Assembly (NCBI GenBank): GCA_040767085.1
Contig: JAXGPF010000007.1
Span: forward strand, 32,001-96,000
Origin: Kiritimatiellia bacterium
GTDB lineage: Bacteria; Verrucomicrobiota; Kiritimatiellia; JAAZAB01
Length of the DNA stretch: 64,000 nt
Reading direction: 5' to 3'
The translations under genes were made by a program, and so were the position numbers. The notes under the pieces were generated by a model. The model had not been told where the DNA came from. It worked only from the letters and a program-made list of their open reading frames with translations, and did no database searches. This document shows, piece after piece, positions 50,997 to 58,944 of this stretch; the stretch's first letter is position 1; every line of letters starts with the position of its first letter.

Positions 50997-51800
50997 CTAA
51001 TCCGTAATAAGACCGCCCAGAAAACGGCGGATATTTCCTCGCAACGCCTCCGCTAATGTTCCGTCCGGCACACCGCGCAACTCCGCTGCCGCATGGAACA
51101 CTATGCCCAGATTGGCGGGCTCGTTCCATTCGCCCGCCGCGCCGGCCGGCAGGAGGTCGGGCGAGTCGGTTTCCAGCAGCAGCCGGTCCGCGGGCATCGC
51201 CAGCAAGGCCCGGCGGGCGCGTTGATGATGCGGGAAGGTGATGTTGCCGGCGAAGGAAACATACGCCCCCAGTTCCAACAGTTCCTCCAGCACTTCCAGG
51301 GAACCCGACCAGGCATGCACCATCAGACCGGCCGGCGGCAGGCCATCCCGGCGCAAAATTTCCAGGAGCCGTCCCCAGGCCCGGCGGCAATGGATCGTCA
51401 CCGGGCGCCGCATCCGGCGCGCCAGTTCCAACTGGCCGACAAATATCTTTCCCTGCTCCAGGTCATCCCGGCCGGCAACCAGGCGGTCAAGCCCGATTTC
51501 GCCGATGCCGGCCGGCTGGCGGCTTAACTGATCTTCCAAAACACGCAGCCAATCCTGCGAATGTCCGGCAATATGGCAGGGATGCAGGCCGAATGAAGGG
51601 AAGATCCTGAGGGCCGGGCGCTGGGCCGCGTCGGCTTCCTGGCCGCGCGCCAGCTCCGCCACAAGCGGCCAGTCCTGTTCGGTGCAACCGCAGCACTGTA
51701 CGCCCGCCACCCCGGCGGCGGCGGCCCGCCGCAAGACCGCCGGCCAATCAGCCAGCAGCCGCGCATCCTGCAAATGGCAATGGGCATCGAATAGTTGCAT
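50997..51800 (-). CDS. tatD: TatD-family hydrolase
   Basis: DAHCH, GLHP, IGEIGLD, TIHCR, LLETDSP, NEP. Confidence 0.9.
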   Translation of the reverse strand: MQLFDAHCHLQDARLLADWPAVLRRAAAAGVAGVQCCGCTEQDWPLVAELARGQEADAAQRPALRIFPSFGLHPCHIAGHSQDWLRVLEDQLSRQPAGIGEIGLDRLVAGRDDLEQGKIFVGQLELARRMRRPVTIHCRRAWGRLLEILRRDGLPPAGLMVHAWSGSLEVLEELLELGAYVSFAGNITFPHHQRARRALLAMPADRLLLETDSPDLLPAGAAGEWNEPANLGIVFHAAAELRGVPDGTLAEALRGNIRRFLGGLITD

Positions 51801-51820
51801 GGCACTAAGAATGGTGGTCG

Positions 51821-51967
51821 GTGTTCAGTGTTCAGGATTCAGTGTTCAGTGTTCGGTGTTCGGTGTTCGGTGTTCAGTGTTCGGTGTTCGGTGTTCAGTG
51901 TTCGGTGTTCGGTGTTCGGTGTTCGGTGTTCAGTGTTCGGTGTTCAGGATTCAGTGTTCGGTGTTCG
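51821..51967. repeat. Tandem heptamer repeat (GTGTTCR) x21
   Basis: 147 bp, 21 units including two GGATTCA variants; inverted copies at 52073-52096 and 52128-52140. Confidence 0.95.
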
Positions 51968-52119
51968 GTGTCGCATACTGTTATGCATCAACATATTAAA
52001 ATCCTGGCTGATTTCAACCGAATACTGCGTTGAAAGCGGCTCGGTTTTTAGGCATGACAACGGAACCTATTCCACTGAACACCGAACACTGAACACAAAC
52101 TCTACACCCCGCATCCCGC

Positions 52120-53115
52120 TCACTGCCCACCGAACACTGATTTCAATTCCTCAACCTGCCGCACTGCCAGGGGAGACAGCTTCTCCGTTTCGCCCGGCGG
52201 CAGCCGCCGCCCCTGATTAAACAACACCACCACCGCATTCCGCTGCAATCTTTCCAGGCCCAGTCGCATGACCGGCGTATCCCGGAAAATAGCTGAAAAT
52301 CCCGGCTCCAGCAATGCCAGGCAATCCTCCGGCCCGGGCAAGTTTTCCCGCTGCGCCACAAACTCCGGCAGCATGCCGGCACGATCAGCCTGGGATGGAT
52401 TCCGCGGGCAGACGGCGGTGCAACAATCACAGCCGAATAGACGCTTTCCTACAAACCCAGCCGCCGCGCGGGGAATGACGCCCTTATGTTCCACGGTCCA
52501 ATATGCCGCGCACCGGCGCGCGTCCACCAGGCCATCCGGGCCGATGGCGGAATTGGGACAAGCCGCGGCGCACTGCCGGCAATCGCCGCAAAGATCGGGG
52601 GCCGGCGAACCGGATGTTTGCAGCGAAACATCCATCAACACCGCCCCCAGGCACAGGCAACAACCCCAGCGCGGATGCACCAGCGCCCCCTGCCGGCCGC
52701 GCCAGCCCAGCCCGGCACGCAAAGCCCATTCCCTTTCCGGCAGCGGCGCCGAATCAACGCAGATGCGGTACCGGGCGGAGCCGCCGGTTTGAACGCGGAG
52801 AAACTCCGCCAATTGGCGCAACCGCGCGCGCATAACCTCATGGTAATCCGGCAGACGGGCGTAGCCGGCATAGTCATTCCCGGGCCTGCCCGGCAGGTAC
52901 CGCGCCGCAACCATTACAAGCGTTCGGGCACCAGGCAGCAGCCGCTCCGGATGCCGCCGCAACGCGGCATGGCGCACCAGGTAACCCATCCCCGCCGCCC
53001 GGCCGGATGCCAGCCATTGTTCGATAACGGATTGCGATTGGCTGGGTCCGGCCGGCGCGCAGCCGGCCGCCGCAAATCCCAATTCCAACGCCTTGTTGAT
53101 GATGGCGGATTCCAT
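52120..53115 (-). CDS. queG: Epoxyqueuosine reductase
   Basis: DYH, VDSAPLPER, CGDCRQCAAACP, DARRC, FGCDCCTAVCP. Confidence 0.9.
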   Translation of the reverse strand: MESAIINKALELGFAAAGCAPAGPSQSQSVIEQWLASGRAAGMGYLVRHAALRRHPERLLPGARTLVMVAARYLPGRPGNDYAGYARLPDYHEVMRARLRQLAEFLRVQTGGSARYRICVDSAPLPEREWALRAGLGWRGRQGALVHPRWGCCLCLGAVLMDVSLQTSGSPAPDLCGDCRQCAAACPNSAIGPDGLVDARRCAAYWTVEHKGVIPRAAAGFVGKRLFGCDCCTAVCPRNPSQADRAGMLPEFVAQRENLPGPEDCLALLEPGFSAIFRDTPVMRLGLERLQRNAVVVLFNQGRRLPPGETEKLSPLAVRQVEELKSVFGGQ

Positions 53116-53183
53116 GTCAATTCGTTAACTACCTGAAGTTTGCGCCATGCAAGTTTGGCGCGGGGCAAGGCGGCGAGAGTGGT

Positions 53184-53297
53184 AGCTATTAGAGCTATTA
53201 GGGGCACGTCTCATGCTATTAGGGTCACGTCTAAATATGTCATGCTATTAGGGTCACGTCTTAATTTGTAATATTTTCAGCACTTTACGGCAGGCTG
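53184..53297. repeat. Ladder of partial duplications of the Y1 element end (9, 19, 29, 57 bp)
   Basis: Units start at or near (CAT)GCTATTAG and extend increasing distances into GGTCACGTCTAAATTTGTAATATTTTCAGC... Confidence 0.85.
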
Positions 53298-53303
53298 CAT
53301 GCT

Positions 53304-54423
53304 ATTAGGGTCACGTCTAAATTTGTAATATTTTCAGCACTTTACGGCAGGCTGTATTGACATCTTTGTCAATCTCGCGTTGGGCTTCCAAGCGTCGCAC
53401 CGCTTCACCAACTGCAGCATAATCCAGGCCGCCCACCGCCGCGCCAAGTTCATGATAGGTCAGCCCGGTGCAAGCCCGCGCCGCCCATAATGCCACATCC
53501 GCCCCCAATCGCCATGCCGGTTGACAAAGACCGCCCACTTTTCCTGCTTCACCGTTTCAACCGTTTTAACCACCTCCGCAAAACTACGTAAGCCGCGTAA
53601 AGCACGCTTCGCCGGCCACTCCCGGCATAACGGTTTAGCTCCTTGCTTTATAGCCTGAAAATATCCTTCGGCGCCAACCGCCAAATTGCTTCGCAAGCGC
53701 TCGGCCCAGTTCTCGGCATAGCCACCCTGACCATATCGCTCAAGTTCCGCACGATACCGCCGCCACCGCTCCGCCCCACGACCGCCTGCTCTTTTCAAAA
53801 TCGCTTCCTGATGCAACCAGTCCGGGCCGCGGTTATAACCGGCAAAGGCACAATATGAACTCCACGCATGCTCCCGTAACACCTTCAGCCGTGAAGCCAC
53901 CTCGGTGGCACTAGCCGCCTGCTTCAACCCTAACCCTTCAAGACGCCGCCCGTGTTTATCCAGCCCCAGCCATTTCACACGCACCGGATTCAAATGCACA
54001 TACTGGCTCAGCCGATAGAGCCACCCACCGCCCTCCACCGGCACACTCTTAAAGCGCCCCTGGAACAACGGCCCAACCCGGTCATGCCGCCGGTTAAACC
54101 AAATACTGTAGCTCACATTTAACCATTGCATCCCACGGCTTAGATTGCCCTCCGGCACGCGCAAAATTAAATGATAGTGATTGTCCATCAGCACATAACC
54201 ATGCACTTCAAACGCATAGCGCTGGCTAACCTTTGCAAGCAACCCCATAAGATGCTCGTAATCGCCCTGGTCGCAAAAGATCCCCGCGCGATTAATCCCG
54301 CGGTTCACCACGTGATACCACCCGCCTGCGTGTTGCAATCGAAGTGCTCTAGCCATGTTTAGATGCCAACATAATCCGTAATTCTTGTCAAGTATTTATT
54401 ACTTATTTAGACATGACCCCAAT
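53304..54423 (-). mobile_element. HUH/Y1 (RAYT-like) element with short terminal inverted repeats
   Basis: ATTAGGGTCACGTCTAAAT (53304-53322) / ATTTAGACATGACCCCAAT (54405-54423), 17/19 inverted match, tightly bracketing the gene. Confidence 0.75.
53317..54356 (-). pseudogene. Y1 HUH transposase (RAYT-like) with C-terminal HTH; 1-bp frameshift near 53500
   Basis: MAR.LR...YHVVNRG, MDNHYHL (HUH), FQGRFKS, YVHLNP, WSSY; ACATCC here versus ACATCCC in the second copy; C terminus in ORF 53317-53538. Confidence 0.85.
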
Positions 54424-54443
54424 TCTTTTACCAAATATATTCC

Positions 54444-55816
54444 TGTTCGTAACAAGTCAAGTGTCCGCTTTTGTAACAAGTGATCTGGGTCTGATTTGTT
54501 ATTGTGTTGTTGCTCCTGGGGTGAGGATTTTCCTCCCCCGCGGGGAAGAAAAAGTGGCTTATGCGACGTCCTCAGCGACGCCAAGATGTTCAACGGTCCT
54601 GGTAGCGCCAACCACATGCGGGCCATAACGGATGGACACCGTGCCATCGAGGTGCTCGCAGACTTTAACCCGGCACTTGGCGAAGCTGAAACGCCATTTG
54701 ATGGTCCAATCTGCAAGCGGCGACTCCCGACAGCCACGGTATTGTCATTTTGAACCTCGCGCATGCTGCACACAGAAAATGCTGTCCAAATCCCTGCTCA
54801 CCGCAAGGCACGAAACACGTTCCTGTTTCCCGCGCCTTCACCTTCATGTTGCGATTGGAAGGAAAGCAGAAACTGTTGTTGAATATAGACGTTGGCCTCG
54901 GCCATCGTCCGGATTCCCGCCTGCCTTAATTCGCGGTATGCCCTTGCCAGGTCTTAAACATCCGCTCTATTCGCCCACGTCCCTGGGGGCTATAGCTCGG
55001 AATATGTTCGATCCCCAACTGTTGCAACGCCCGTCCAATTTGCGTCAATTGACGCCGGTCCAACCGCCCCGCCTTCTTTGGGCGTATAAAGAAATGACTG
55101 CCACGATCCGTGTACAGACTGCAGAAACCCCATGTTTAATAATGACTTCTTTCAACCCCTTCATCACCGTTAATGTCCCTTCCTGGGTACAAGATAGGCC
55201 GTGTAGACTTCGCTGGTGGCATCGTCCATCACCAGGATCGGATCCTGCTTCTGGTCTGGCCAGCAGGGGCAACCAGGCATGGGTGCTGCCACCATCAACA
55301 TCATCCCCGCCATTTGTCGCCGTTCGGCTGCTGCTGCCGATGCGGCCCTCGTTTCCGGGCCTTCGCTACCAACCCGGCCGTCTGCAAGGCGCTCTGACCC
55401 ACTGATAACTGAGCTCGATCCCATGCTCCGCCTGCAGCTTCTCGTGAAAATGCCTCACATTGAAATCCATGTATTCTTCTCGTACAACCTCAGCACCTGC
55501 TTCACCGTCGCAAGGAGCACGCGCCGCAGCACCGGTATCTTCCGCCGACGATCCAGCAGCCCGTCGGAACCATACCGCTCGTAGCGCCCTTCCAGCGCCT
55601 CGCATGGTCCGGTAGCTCACACCTAGTATCTCCGCCGCCTCCCACCACATTAACCGCCCTTCAATCGCACGCAAGATCACTTCCTGTACACCATTGCCCG
55701 CTCCAGCGGCTGCCTTCGGATATTCATCCATATATTACCCCTTTGAATGCACCATCTGACAGCTTTAAGCGGACAACCATTTGTTAATTATGCGGCCAAG
55801 TCATTTGTTTACGACA
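54444..55816 (-). mobile_element. Second, frameshifted copy of the IS1202-type element
   Basis: Full-length reverse-complement copy of 43634-45019 with many small indels; imperfect flanking repeat TTACCAAATATATTCC / TTACCCAAATACGTGTTCC. Confidence 0.9.
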
Positions 55817-55837
55817 TTACCCAAATACGTGTTCCGC

Positions 55838-55913
55838 TTGACATTTGTTCCAATCATGCTAAATGAATTTCAGTAGTAATTTCGCAGGTTAGTCTAATAC
55901 TACTGTTGGAGTC
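55838..55913 (+). promoter_or_regulatory. Candidate cassette promoter and attI-like site
   Basis: TTGACA at 55838-55843; GTCTAATACTACT followed by core GTTGGAG (55905-55911) immediately before the ATG. Confidence 0.45.
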
Positions 55914-56324
55914 ATGAAGAAACGCAGGACACTCCTGACGATCGCAATCACCGCAGTGCTCTGCTTTGCTGCCGTTCCTATCGCAAGATACCTTCATGCA
56001 TTCCACCACTGGAGCCGAAAGTACAATCAGGCAGAGCGCCTCGTGCCAATCGTGTGGCCAATGTCTTCCGACATTCAGGAGTTCAGCCAAGATCGTGCGG
56101 CGTTCCCAGCATCTTTGGAGGAGCTTGTGGCGTTTTCGGGGGCAACGCAGTGCCTGTCCCTCGCTCGGTTCCCGCACGAGTTCTCCACAGGAACGGGCGT
56201 AGTGTTTCGCATCATGGTAAATGACATGTTCGGGTTCACAGTCAGTGCAGACGGGCGACCAGACTGGATCTGGCCACCTGATGGAATATGGACTCCAACA
56301 ACCGGCGGAACCGTACGCCGCTAA
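55914..56324 (+). CDS. Hypothetical membrane-anchored protein carried as an integron-type gene cassette
   Basis: 136 aa with N-terminal TM; ATG 9 bp after the GTT core; stop lies inside the attC. Confidence 0.7.
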   Translation: MKKRRTLLTIAITAVLCFAAVPIARYLHAFHHWSRKYNQAERLVPIVWPMSSDIQEFSQDRAAFPASLEELVAFSGATQCLSLARFPHEFSTGTGVVFRIMVNDMFGFTVSADGRPDWIWPPDGIWTPTTGGTVRR

Positions 56325-56353
56325 CGCGCCGCCGGTTCGCCGGGGCGTTGGGA
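56293..56353 (+). other. attC recombination site (61 bp)
   Basis: R'' CTCCAAC, 5-nt spacer, L'' GCGGAACC (one extra G), central region, L' GGTTCGC, 6-nt spacer, R' GTTGGGA; GACTCCAAC is the exact reverse complement of the cassette start GTTGGAGTC. Confidence 0.75.
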
Positions 56354-56359
56354 GTCACG

Positions 56360-56405
56360 AGTAATTAGGGGAGTAATTAGTAATTAGGGTCACGTCTAAA
56401 TTTGT
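56360..56405. repeat. Second ladder of partial end duplications (12, 7, 27 bp)
   Basis: AGTAATTAGGGG / AGTAATT / AGTAATTAGGGTCACGTCTAAATTTGT preceding the full end at 56406. Confidence 0.8.
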
Positions 56406-56866
56406 AGTAATTAGGGTCACGTCTAAATTTGTAATATTTTAGCACTTTACGGCAGGCCGCATTGATATCTCGATCAATCTCGCGTTGGGCTTCCAAGCGT
56501 CGCACTGCTTCACCAACTGCAGCATAATCCAAGCCGCCCACCGCCGCGCCAAGTTCGTGATAGGTCAGCTCGGTGCAAGCCCGCGCCGCCCATAATGCCA
56601 CATCCCGCCCCCAATCGCCATGCCGGTTGACAAAGACCGCCCACTTTTCCTGCTTCACCGCTTCAACCGCTTTAACCACCACTGTAAAACTACGTAAGCC
56701 GCGTAAAGTACGTTTCGCCGGCCACTCCCGGCATAACGGTTTAGATCCTTGCTTTATAGCCTGAAAAAATTCTTCGGCGCCAACCGCCATATTGCTTCAC
56801 AAGCGCGCGGCCCAGTTCTCGGCATAGCCACTCCTGACATATCGCTCAAGTTCCGCACGATACCGC
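56406..56866 (-). pseudogene. Truncated second copy (3' part) of the Y1 transposase element
   Basis: Closely similar to 53304-53760; similarity stops abruptly at 56866. Confidence 0.85.
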
Positions 56867-56883: not shown

Positions 56884-58944
56884 TCACTGCCGCTGGATCA
56901 GGTAGTAAATGGACGGGAATGGCCCGCCCAGCGTAAACGAGATGGCGCCGTCTTGTACGGCGGCCGGCACCTTCCCGATCAGCGCGCCGGCGGTGTTAAC
57001 GGCGAATATTTTCAAGCCGCTGACCCGGGTGCCGATTTCCAGTTCCGCCTCGATCACCTCGACCTGGATCGGCCCATGACCGCGATTAAACTGAAGGGTA
57101 TGGTCGGCATTGTACTCGGCGCCGGTGTTGTCCGCCCGGCCCACGGCGGTCAGGAGCAGATTATCGGACTCCGCCACCGGGGCATCGGTGAGCGAACTCA
57201 GGGCAATCACGCCAAAATCCGTATGCACCTTGATTTTCATTCCGCGCAGGGCGATCGCGCCGGCCGCACCCAGGAAGCCGTATGCCGCCTTGGTGCGCGG
57301 CGTGTCAATCGTGGCATAGCGGCGGTCGAGATTGCGATACAGTTCGCCGGTATCGGAAACCAATTTCCGCAGGTTTTCCGGAACCAGCGGGCGGTCCAGC
57401 GGCGTTTGCAGCGGCGCGGAGGCAGAGTCGCCGGCAAAACGGATGCCGACCTTGCGGACTTCCGCGGCGCCGGCCAACGCCGGGACATCGCCGGCGCCCA
57501 GATGAACCTTGCCGGCCGGCGCGGGCGCGGCGGGATCGGGCAAATCCGGCAGCACGACTTCCGCCGGGTTGTCGGATTCGCGGACATCGCCGCGCCGCAG
57601 CAACAGCGCGGCGTGGTAAAACAAGCCGAATTTAGCAGGATCGTTAAACGTGTCGAACACCCCTCCGCGGTACGGGACGCCGGCCAGCGCATCGGAAGTG
57701 ATGGGCGCGGCAATCTGGTCCACATGTTCCCGGCAATCATAGCGGTAGGTGTGGATCGCGGCGCCCGCCCAGCCCTGCAACGCGGCAACCGCGGCCAGAT
57801 AGAGCGGGCTTTCGGCGCGCCATTCGTTGGGCCAGGGATCGTCCCACTCGGAAACGAAGAAAGGGCGGTCCAGGAACCGGCAGAAAGTCAGCCCGCGGAA
57901 CCACGGGGCACGCTCCCCCAGCATGCTGCGGTTCCGAAAACGTTTTTCCGCCGGACGCCACACCCCCCATTCATACCAGTAGGTATGGCCATCGGTGAAA
58001 TCCGCCGTGCGCTGGGCGGCCATCAAAGGCGCCCCGCCGGCGGCCCAGTTGGTGCCGGCGATGGGAATCCGCACGCCCAATTCCCGCAGATGCCGGATCA
58101 TGCCGGCGTAATATTCCCGCTGGATTTCCACCAGGAAGGCCAGCATGGCCGGCGCGCCGGAGGTAAAATCCAGCGGATCCGCCGCCGGCGGCAAGCCCCG
58201 GCCTTCCTCCCAGGCGCGGTAACGCTGCGCCAACTGCGAGCGGTATGGTTCCACCAGGTTCTGCATGCAGGCCCGGTTTAAAATCTCGTTTTCATTGGCG
58301 ATTTCCGTCATAACGATGGCCGGATCGTCCTTGAAGGCCAGGCTGGTATAGGGATTGACATGCGTCCAGATTTGCGCGTTAAATTCGCGCTGGAGTTCGA
58401 TCAGGCGCGGATCGAAATTGGAATACGGCCGGGCGGCCGCCGGCAACTGGTCGGCCGCCGGCACGCCATCGCCGCTGCGGAAAGTCCGGTAGGTCAGCAG
58501 GTCCAGATAAATGTAGATTCCCTCGTTTTTCAAACAATGGACAAGGTAATCCAGGCGGTCGAGACTTTCCGGATCAAGCCGCCGGGTATTTTCCAGGCGG
58601 GCGCCCTTGGTGAATTGAAAAATATTCGGCGTGGACCATTCGCCGTCCAACTGGTGAAAACGCACCAGGTTGACACCGAACCGCGCCAGGCGCCGGGCCA
58701 CGATTTCGCTGTGAGCATGGGTGGGGAAATTGGCGGCGCTGTTGAAATTGACGCCCCAAAAACGGCCGGGAGCGCCATCCTCGAAAACGAACCGGCCGCC
58801 GCGCGCTTGCAGAAAGCCATGGCGGCCTGCGGGCTTTTCGCCGGCGAACACGAACGACAAGTCAACCGGCGCATTGTCCCACGGCAGGGTAAAGTCGATC
58901 ACACGGCGGGATTCGGTTTGCATGTTATTCCTCATTGGGGGCAT
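56884..58944 (-). CDS. Clan GH-A (GH5-like) glycoside hydrolase; start may be 58923 or 58935
   Basis: RFWGVN, GVNLVRFH, HVNPYT, EIANENE acid/base, FVSEW nucleophile. Confidence 0.8.
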   Translation of the reverse strand: MPPMRNNMQTESRRVIDFTLPWDNAPVDLSFVFAGEKPAGRHGFLQARGGRFVFEDGAPGRFWGVNFNSAANFPTHAHSEIVARRLARFGVNLVRFHQLDGEWSTPNIFQFTKGARLENTRRLDPESLDRLDYLVHCLKNEGIYIYLDLLTYRTFRSGDGVPAADQLPAAARPYSNFDPRLIELQREFNAQIWTHVNPYTSLAFKDDPAIVMTEIANENEILNRACMQNLVEPYRSQLAQRYRAWEEGRGLPPAADPLDFTSGAPAMLAFLVEIQREYYAGMIRHLRELGVRIPIAGTNWAAGGAPLMAAQRTADFTDGHTYWYEWGVWRPAEKRFRNRSMLGERAPWFRGLTFCRFLDRPFFVSEWDDPWPNEWRAESPLYLAAVAALQGWAGAAIHTYRYDCREHVDQIAAPITSDALAGVPYRGGVFDTFNDPAKFGLFYHAALLLRRGDVRESDNPAEVVLPDLPDPAAPAPAGKVHLGAGDVPALAGAAEVRKVGIRFAGDSASAPLQTPLDRPLVPENLRKLVSDTGELYRNLDRRYATIDTPRTKAAYGFLGAAGAIALRGMKIKVHTDFGVIALSSLTDAPVAESDNLLLTAVGRADNTGAEYNADHTLQFNRGHGPIQVEVIEAELEIGTRVSGLKIFAVNTAGALIGKVPAAVQDGAISFTLGGPFPSIYYLIQRQ

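Follow-up and report, generated by a model that had tools for sequence, protein, structure and literature searches.

The window considered here is a stretch of 64,000 nucleotides (nt) from the genome of a Kiritimatiellia bacterium (contig JAXGPF010000007.1 of assembly GCA_040767085.1), and positions are counted from the first letter of that stretch. It contains an element of roughly 1.12 kb with a single gene, which is a TIRtron, together with a truncated second copy; the two are referred to as locus 1 and locus 2. The gene at locus 1 (53317 to 54356, minus strand) encodes a TIRYT enzyme in which a Y1/HUH domain is followed by a helix-turn-helix (HTH) domain resembling domain IV of DnaA. The ends of the element are marked by 27-nt terminal inverted repeats, namely, ATTAGGGTCACGTCTAAATTTGTAATA at the right end (53304 to 53330, plus strand) and ATTGGGGTCATGTCTAAATAAGTAATA, read on the minus strand, at the left end (54397 to 54423). 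The left end carries the end motif in the form GGGGTCAT, while the right end carries GGGTCAC, a three-G variant of GGGGWSAS. Locus 2 retains only the right end and 457 bp from the 3′ part of the gene, with DNA 94% identical to that of locus 1; preceded by AGTA, it occupies 56406 to 56866 on the plus strand and ends 18 nt before the neighboring gene (56884 to 58944, minus strand). Outside the right end of both copies lies a stack of partial copies of that end, which we call a ladder; no convincing ladder is found outside the left end of the locus 1 copy.

Read directly from the sequence, the partial copies at both loci are arranged head to tail, and each stack abuts a full element end. At locus 1, on the plus strand, the outermost copy has 9 nt (53184 to 53192; AGCTATTAG, i.e., AGCT and the first 5 nt of the element end), and the second has 19 nt (53193 to 53211; AGCTATTAGGGGCACGTCT, i.e., AGCT and 15 nt of the end), with a G replacing the T of the GGG(T) run and a single mismatch in the 15-mer match at 53197 to 53211. 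They are followed by a copy of 29 nt (53212 to 53240; CATGCT and ATTAGGGTCACGTCTAAATATGT, 23 nt of the end, with one mismatch) and by a copy of 57 nt (53241 to 53297; CATGCT and 51 nt of the end, with one mismatch), which contains the complete terminal inverted repeat and is also picked up by the strict parser described below. The flank hexamer CATGCT adjoining the full end (53298 to 53303) forms the beginning, on the 5′ side, of the repeated unit. At locus 2, also on the plus strand, copies of 12 nt (56360 to 56371; AGTAATTAGGGG, i.e., AGTA and ATTAGGGG), 7 nt (56372 to 56378; AGTAATT, i.e., AGTA and ATT), and 27 nt (56379 to 56405; AGTA and 23 nt of the end) precede the truncated element, and the inner stop of the 27-nt copy, after ..AAATTTGT, is identical to that of the 29-nt copy of locus 1. 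With Tandem Repeats Finder, nested periods of 9, 29 (93% matches), and 57 (98% matches) emerge at locus 1, and periods of 7 and 27 (100% matches) emerge at locus 2. The end 15-mer ATTRGGGTCAYGTCT occurs seven times in the window at two or fewer mismatches, against a shuffle mean of 0.22, and 0 of 100 shuffles reach seven. The point differences of the outer copies are real (GGGGCAC for GGGTCAC, AAATATGT for AAATTTGT, and CTTAATT for CTAAATT), and the coordinates, copy lengths, and point differences which an earlier note on this DNA had given for both ladders all agree with our reading. That note had also described one essentially fixed outer boundary in the local flank and variable inner ones; the inner boundaries do vary, but the outer one is nearly rather than strictly fixed, since the units of locus 1 start with AGCT in the two outermost copies and with CATGCT in the two inner ones.

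According to Di Nocera, De Gregorio, and Rocco (2013; PMC3733652), TIRtrons consist of RAYT-like genes, the TIRYTs, flanked by inverted repeats which share GGGGWSAS instead of REPs, and the text of Quentin et al. (2018; PMC6006769) assigns them to TnpA_REP subclass 2.1, with a subgroup 2.1.2 featuring a Bac_DnaA_C-like tail. By its domain and repeat features the present element is a TIRtron and its gene a TIRYT of subclass 2.1.2. The gene product matches Pfam Y1_Tnp (E value, 1.1e-12; 48.6 bits versus a cutoff of 23), and H60 and H62 of the HUH motif, as well as Y119, are invariant across an alignment of 23 homologues. The profile of these homologues matches DnaA domain IV (1j1v; E value, 2e-6), while the single-sequence Pfam match to a Bac_DnaA_C-type tail is weak (E value, 0.0012 to 0.008, below the cutoff). 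An AlphaFold model was built from the same alignment (mean pLDDT, 85.9). Its N-domain finds by Foldseek, as the best match, 4er8_A, the E. coli TnpA_REP bound to a REP hairpin (E value, 5.6e-6), followed by the IS608 and ISDra2 transposases; its C-domain aligns with DnaA domain IV of 1j1v_A (TMt, 0.86; root mean square deviation, 1.7; 94 columns). The Y1 HUH enzyme with an HTH domain proposed in the earlier note is thus recovered by Pfam, by the invariant residues, and by profile and structural matches.

The DNA at the element ends folds no better than shuffled sequence (z, −0.6 to −1.1; right end, −0.6), and a structured end of the REP or IS608 type was rejected for this reason. The triplets AAT and ATT that follow the C run, one at each end, form a reverse-complementary pair and are therefore part of the repeat. 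In the whole 4.08-Mb genome, the end motif has only 11 matches, all at or near such genes or their remnants, and no target site duplication is evident in the flanks listed for the copies. In this assembly a frameshift near 53498 splits the TIRYT gene into the open reading frames 53460 to 54356 and 53317 to 53538. It consists of a missing C in a run of C's, and the extra C is present in all covering metagenome contigs, from four runs, and in a further copy of the element on contig C25; an error of assembly or a change confined to this strain could account for the frameshift. The C25 copy is 99% identical to locus 1 and its gene is intact, encoding a protein of 346 amino acids (aa) with a middle helical region plus the HTH domain, and so the frame-repaired protein which the earlier note had called for is unnecessary.

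We aligned Logan contigs, which are assembled sequences and not reads, from four runs of four studies (landfill, sludge, and digester) on 52700 to 54600. Contigs of run X1 cover 52700 to 53277 with 0 differences, and those of X2, X5, and X7 extend to 53292, again with 0 differences; in X2 and X7, contigs span the point where the 57-nt copy meets the full end. The ladder of locus 2 is found in X1, as a loose end, and in X1 and X5, as a back-joint with "GTA." These data confirm that the ladders are real DNA and not assembly stutter, the outcome which the earlier note had named beforehand as speaking against it. Ladder-length variants are absent among the contigs of the four runs, where contigs can reveal neither rare variants nor the copy number of the 57-nt unit.

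Comparison with the C25 copy indicates where the ladders arose. The C25 and locus 1 copies share sequence only from TTAGGG (53305) to ..GACCC (54419), and the repeated unit of locus 1 begins 7 nt outside this common sequence, with a CATGCT hexamer which the C25 copy does not have. Since the units hold local flank that is absent from a 99%-identical copy, they arose after insertion and separately at each locus, in keeping with the separate origin which had been proposed from the different flank bases. Flank bases traveling with the element (AGTA at locus 2 and C25) were considered and rejected, as C25 and locus 1 differ there at 99% identity. AGTA before the end is common to locus 2 and the C25 copy and is absent at locus 1. 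GGGG is found in an outer partial copy at both loci (53200 to 53203 and 56368 to 56371), while all three full right ends have GGGT, and the outer GGGG-bearing copies are presumably the older ones.

To place these two ladders in the context of the family, we gathered homologous loci regardless of repeats: 30 loci from the genomes of relatives, 80 from contigs representing one genome per species across many phyla, and 80 from metagenome contigs. After removal of duplicates and at a repeat score of at least 28, 88 of 111 loci were kept in the genome set, and 58 of 80 were kept in the metagenome set. Nearly all of these 88 and 58 loci have inverted repeats ending in ..GACCTGACCCC. A strict parser, in which all copies have to end at one outer boundary, with a minimum of 7 nt and an exact match below 11 nt, detected ladders at 49 of 170 ends in the genome set and at 26 of 107 ends in the separate metagenome set. 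Control anchors placed on both strands of the DNA flanking these loci scored a ladder in 126 of 12,169 cases (1.0%), some of which are themselves extra end arrays, and control anchors inside elements did so in 9 of 4,849 cases (0.19%). The enrichment at element ends is therefore 25- to 28-fold over flanks and about 150-fold over element interiors. In the genome set, ladders are equally frequent at left and right ends (25 versus 24), and 37 of 88 loci have at least one ladder, 12 of them at both ends. An unbiased scan for tandem duplications of 7 to 90 nt at 165 ends gave the same picture, with junctions clustering 0 to 20 nt outside the C run (GACCCC): the first two 10-nt bins hold 39 and 14 clusters, compared with about 0.5 per bin beyond 100 nt. 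Ladders are a habit of the whole TIRtron family, and the polarized duplications that had been expected of homologous elements elsewhere do occur.

Several individual loci are worth describing, among them one further end on C25 and one on C22 of the present genome. The left end of the C25 copy (C25:228771-228800; L031 in the survey) has a 7-nt duplication of pure flank, TTATCTG twice, its right end has no ladder, and its left flank recurs in runs X2 and X7. At C22:374700-375260, a paralogous TIRtron whose protein is 35% identical has five partial copies (~45, 24, 16, 8, and 8 nt) past its left end. The most extreme stutter in the sample is that of L051, from the metagenome-assembled genome of an uncultured gammaproteobacterium, where both repeats are followed by ~60 to 80 nt of reiterated TGACCCC-like pieces. 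In run X5, a loose end behind 54426 continues as GACCCAAATTCC CCTCAATTCC CCTGCGAT, known as a 30-letter consensus only, which resembles a ladder of two steps belonging to a different copy or strain of the element.

The positions of the boundaries are informative. In 42 of the 49 ladders of the genome set, the shared outer boundary lies 4 to 13 nt beyond the G run. Counting from the last C, inner boundaries occupy more than 25 positions between +6 and −58 and become sparser farther away; the median unit is 12 nt. Some units are flank alone, and those of down to 7 nt hold 0 to 3 nt of the element; flank-only units are expected if copying begins in the flank and proceeds inward. Across 26 perfect single duplications, the extent of junction microhomology is close to that expected by chance and not slippage-like (0 nt in 11 cases, 1 nt in 8, 2 nt in 4, 3 nt in 2, and 8 nt in 1). 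On the strand reading flank-GGGGTCA, 54 of 87 inner junctions have G as the joined base, and a flank G directly precedes the outermost unit in 30 of 66 cases, where neighboring flank positions have 18 to 32% G and C is rare. None of 20,000 simulations attains the observed G count (set 1).

HUH enzymes remain linked to the 5′ side of the nick they make, and a 3′-OH is needed for their release. By this chemistry, such enzymes would leave as their signature a 5′ boundary that is fixed and 3′ ends, joined to it, that vary. We consider that the ladders are probably scars of TIRYT cleavage and rejoining, whichever route the rejoining takes, and we lean, by a small measure, toward a version in which the enzyme acts on its own ends in place by primed extension. 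In this version, the repeat-bound enzyme would nick the strand 5′-flank-GGGGTCA-3′ in the flank, mostly 4 to 13 nt 5′ of GGGG and preferentially after a G, and would become covalently attached to the 5′ end. A host polymerase would then extend the 3′-OH of the flank into the element and displace the strand to which the enzyme is linked. Once extension has covered some distance, which varies (median, 12 nt, and up to >50 nt), the new 3′ end would attack the phosphotyrosyl link, either directly or following another cleavage, for which a preceding G would likewise be preferred. The stretch from nick to stop would now be present twice on that strand, to be fixed as a tandem duplication by the next replication, and repeated cycles would yield copies with a common outer (5′) boundary and differing inner boundaries. 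At locus 1, we infer that the nick falls just 5′ of CATGCT (53298) on the plus strand.

Several observations weigh against this scheme or bound it. What the sequences show is the anatomy, the enrichment throughout the family, the place of the common boundary, and the G bias; the nick, the priming, and the rejoining are inferences from these. The contigs of four studies agree throughout the outer ladder, and the "growing array" of the earlier note finds no counterpart in them. Ladders occur at both ends, so that the enzyme would have to act on opposite strands at the two, which a purely lagging-strand mechanism leaves unexplained. The outer boundary is not strictly fixed and shifts by a few nucleotides between older and newer units, both at locus 1 and at the paralogous TIRtron on C22; in the latter it creeps outward by 1 to 4 nt in the newer, inner copies (..TTCC, ..TTCCC, ..TTCCCC, and ..TTCCCCGG), and the simple model does not predict such shifts. 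The repeat's own G run accounts for part of the G bias at inner junctions, where neighboring offsets have 40 to 52% G, and within the window itself T occurs besides G among the junction bases. The fixed-outer polarity, moreover, is imposed by the strict parser. A mirrored parser with a fixed inner boundary, which discriminates polarity weakly, parses six multicopy ends, mostly with lengths 1 nt apart, and the polarity is decisive only in the few, strongly unequal ladders, namely, those of both window loci and of L058 (26, 9, and 19 nt), L049 (17 and 12 nt), L143 (22 and 18 nt), L147 (8 and 47 nt), and L167 (19 and 12 nt).

HUH chemistry could also produce ladders without priming. Two cleavages, one at a fixed flank site and one at a G in or near the repeat, might be followed by cross-joining of the ends between sister strands at a fork, or a partial unit might be excised as a circle and reinserted at the flank site, as in the circle or peel-and-paste variant of a subelement depicted in Fig. 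7A of Ton-Hoang et al. (2012; PMC3333891). The preference for G at both boundaries fits two sequence-selective cuts, TnpA_REP recombines two cleavage sites in vitro according to the same article, and one copy at each window locus has the same internal stop. That coincidence is not significant, as we estimate its probability by chance at ~0.2. Inner boundaries occupy more than 25 positions, in numbers that fall with distance, and resemble variable extension more than discrete sites. We regard this route as unlikely. We find it more improbable still that the chemistry of the enzyme is uninvolved and that forks stall at a protein-bound or otherwise difficult end and restart by template switching or slippage. 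The duplications are indeed short (median, 12 nt) and located at a protein-binding site with a G run at its end, and tandem duplications are also found at about 1% of control anchors. Against this stand the near-chance microhomology, the several copies with one common boundary, the position of that boundary in unrelated flank at a narrow distance from the motif (within 4 to 13 nt in 42 of 49 ladders), and the 25- to 28-fold and about 150-fold enrichments over flanks and interiors, to which may be added that the ends have no stable hairpin and that the flank DNA directly preceding the boundary favors G.

The mobility of the element, which moves or has moved, as two 99%-identical copies at different loci and further flanks in metagenome contigs attest, suggests another origin for the stacks: repeated self-insertion into the terminal region, with subsequent homologous deletion between copies leaving a partial end each time. 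Such events would leave the flank only once, yet every unit carries 4 to 10 nt of local flank, units as short as 7 nt hold 0 to 3 nt of element, and the flank bases differ between sister copies; we give this explanation very little credence. Stutter of the assembler in a repeat merits least of all. The genome is a draft of 28 contigs with one gene frameshift that is possibly an assembly error, and yet the same ladder is found with 0 differences in the contigs of four independent studies, and a like anatomy is found at 75 of 277 ends from unrelated assemblies.

Primed extension by the TIRYT enzyme, the version toward which we lean, has precedents in related systems. Rolling-circle Rep proteins and relaxases nick DNA to form a 5′-phosphotyrosyl link, the 3′-OH primes synthesis, and a later 3′-OH resolves the link. 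They share this nick-prime-resolve logic with the scheme proposed here, and they differ from it in what is copied: a whole replicon lies between two passes of one site in their case, whereas here a tract of 7 to 80 nt yields a local tandem duplication. Termination and reinitiation by these enzymes are summarized by Corneloup et al. (2021; PMC8266576). In the amplification model for BIMEs drawn in Fig. 7B of PMC3333891, with which the primed scheme agrees in its essentials, the enzyme nicks, the end primes, and the Tyr-5′P is rejoined to the new 3′-OH, by which a tandem unit is added. In vitro, the Tyr-5′P of E. coli TnpA_REP is resolved by any attacking 3′-OH which ends in the C of its C|T site (PMC8266576), and cleavage takes place a few nucleotides 5′ or 3′ of the recognized element at this minimal C|T site (PMC3333891 and PMC8266576). 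The requirement for a last-base C is paralleled by the G preference at TIRtron junctions.

The TIRtron described here therefore resembles REPtrons in its enzyme, whose best structural match is 4er8, and, in the scheme proposed here, in the primed 3′-OH and rejoining by which their model adds a tandem unit. Unlike REPtrons, it has neither a GTAG-tagged hairpin nor a high-copy repeat family, and whole elements move; GTAG-tagged palindromic REPs dispersed in high copy were not encountered, the ends having no hairpin and the motif only 11 matches in 4.08 Mb, and the protein scores 57.7 bits with NCBIfam REP_Tyr_transpos (NF047646), below the cutoff of 80. Instead of whole BIMEs, nested partial units with one anchored boundary are amplified, and G takes the place of C as the preferred base. 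With IS200/IS605 elements such as IS608 and ISDra2, it shares the Y1 HUH fold and, if the nick lies where we place it, a cleavage site in the flank 5′ of what is recognized, as at the IS200/IS605 left end. Those elements are described in PMC3333891 as having subterminal hairpins, no inverted repeats, a single active strand, and seamless excision. The TIRtron, instead, has inverted repeats without hairpins, scars at both ends, an additional domain of a type binding double-stranded DNA, and a protein of 346 aa, compared with about 130 to 155 aa for small TnpA proteins as judged from the lengths of solved chains. A Y1/HUH gene for about 340 to 360 aa with a C-terminal HTH, nonhairpin GGGGWSAS inverted repeats, and low copy number are what it has in common with other TIRtrons.

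The earlier note had presented the ladders as the product of a new kind of repeat-generating activity, distinct from IS200/IS605 peel-and-paste and from REP systems. Such novelty does not hold, as both the element type (PMC3733652) and the reaction logic (PMC3333891) had been published; the distinction from peel-and-paste stands, while that from REP systems stands for the anatomy and falls for the reaction logic. What we did not find described in the literature searched are nested partial copies with flank bases. The text of PMC3733652 and PMC6006769, figures and supplements aside, does not mention partial end copies with flank bases, the sole related remark of Di Nocera et al. in the text being that terminal inverted repeats are possibly dimers or clusters (PMC3733652), where the terms "duplication" and "target site" do not appear. 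A wider literature search yielded nothing relevant among the titles listed.

In the literature searched, we found no assay of a TIRYT enzyme. The ladders provide a map, drawn solely from sequence data, of the likely cleavage site, giving its strand, its distance from the motif, and its preferred base, and they make the site of this enzyme class testable with short oligonucleotides. They also lend support from living cells to the nick-prime-rejoin model, which so far rests on the in vitro reactions of one E. coli enzyme. For annotation, ladders mark TIRtron ends and advise caution against calling such repeats regulatory arrays. A more far-reaching reading, which we regard as possible rather than probable, is that the ladders are a natural genome-wide footprint of TIRYT enzymes which are active in vivo across many phyla, nick the GGGGWSAS strand 4 to 13 nt 5′ of the motif after a G, and let the 3′-OH of the flank prime synthesis. 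If this reading is true, TIRtrons would move by nick-primed copy-out, on opposite strands at the two ends, unlike peel-and-paste, and the same reaction would be the long-sought engine of the local amplification of REPs and terminal inverted repeats.

Scanning JGI metagenome contigs for exact patterns of the repeat of this particular element gave 0 matches. In the same genome, at C3:53985-54035, a sequence resembling the repeat core occurs twice in tandem (GGGACACGTCTCGACATGAC and GGGGTCACGTCTCGACATG), with no transposase match reported there, and the site is possibly a solo end accompanied by a partial copy. Immediately beyond the left end of the locus 1 copy, at 54440 to 55800, lie broken open reading frames on the minus strand which look, by eye, like an insertion sequence transposase with several frameshifts; Pfam gave no matches on four open reading frame fragments of this region between the two loci. 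Contigs over 54444 to 54600 have a depth 5- to 30-fold above that of their neighbors in all four runs, with 7 letters and 8 gaps differing, which points to a multicopy repeat or to sequence shared with other organisms. On the other side of the element, a tandem array of the heptamer GGTGTTC (51813 to 51971; 22.7 copies, 87% matches) lies between a TatD-family gene (50997 to 51800, minus strand) and a queG-like gene (52120 to 53115, minus strand).

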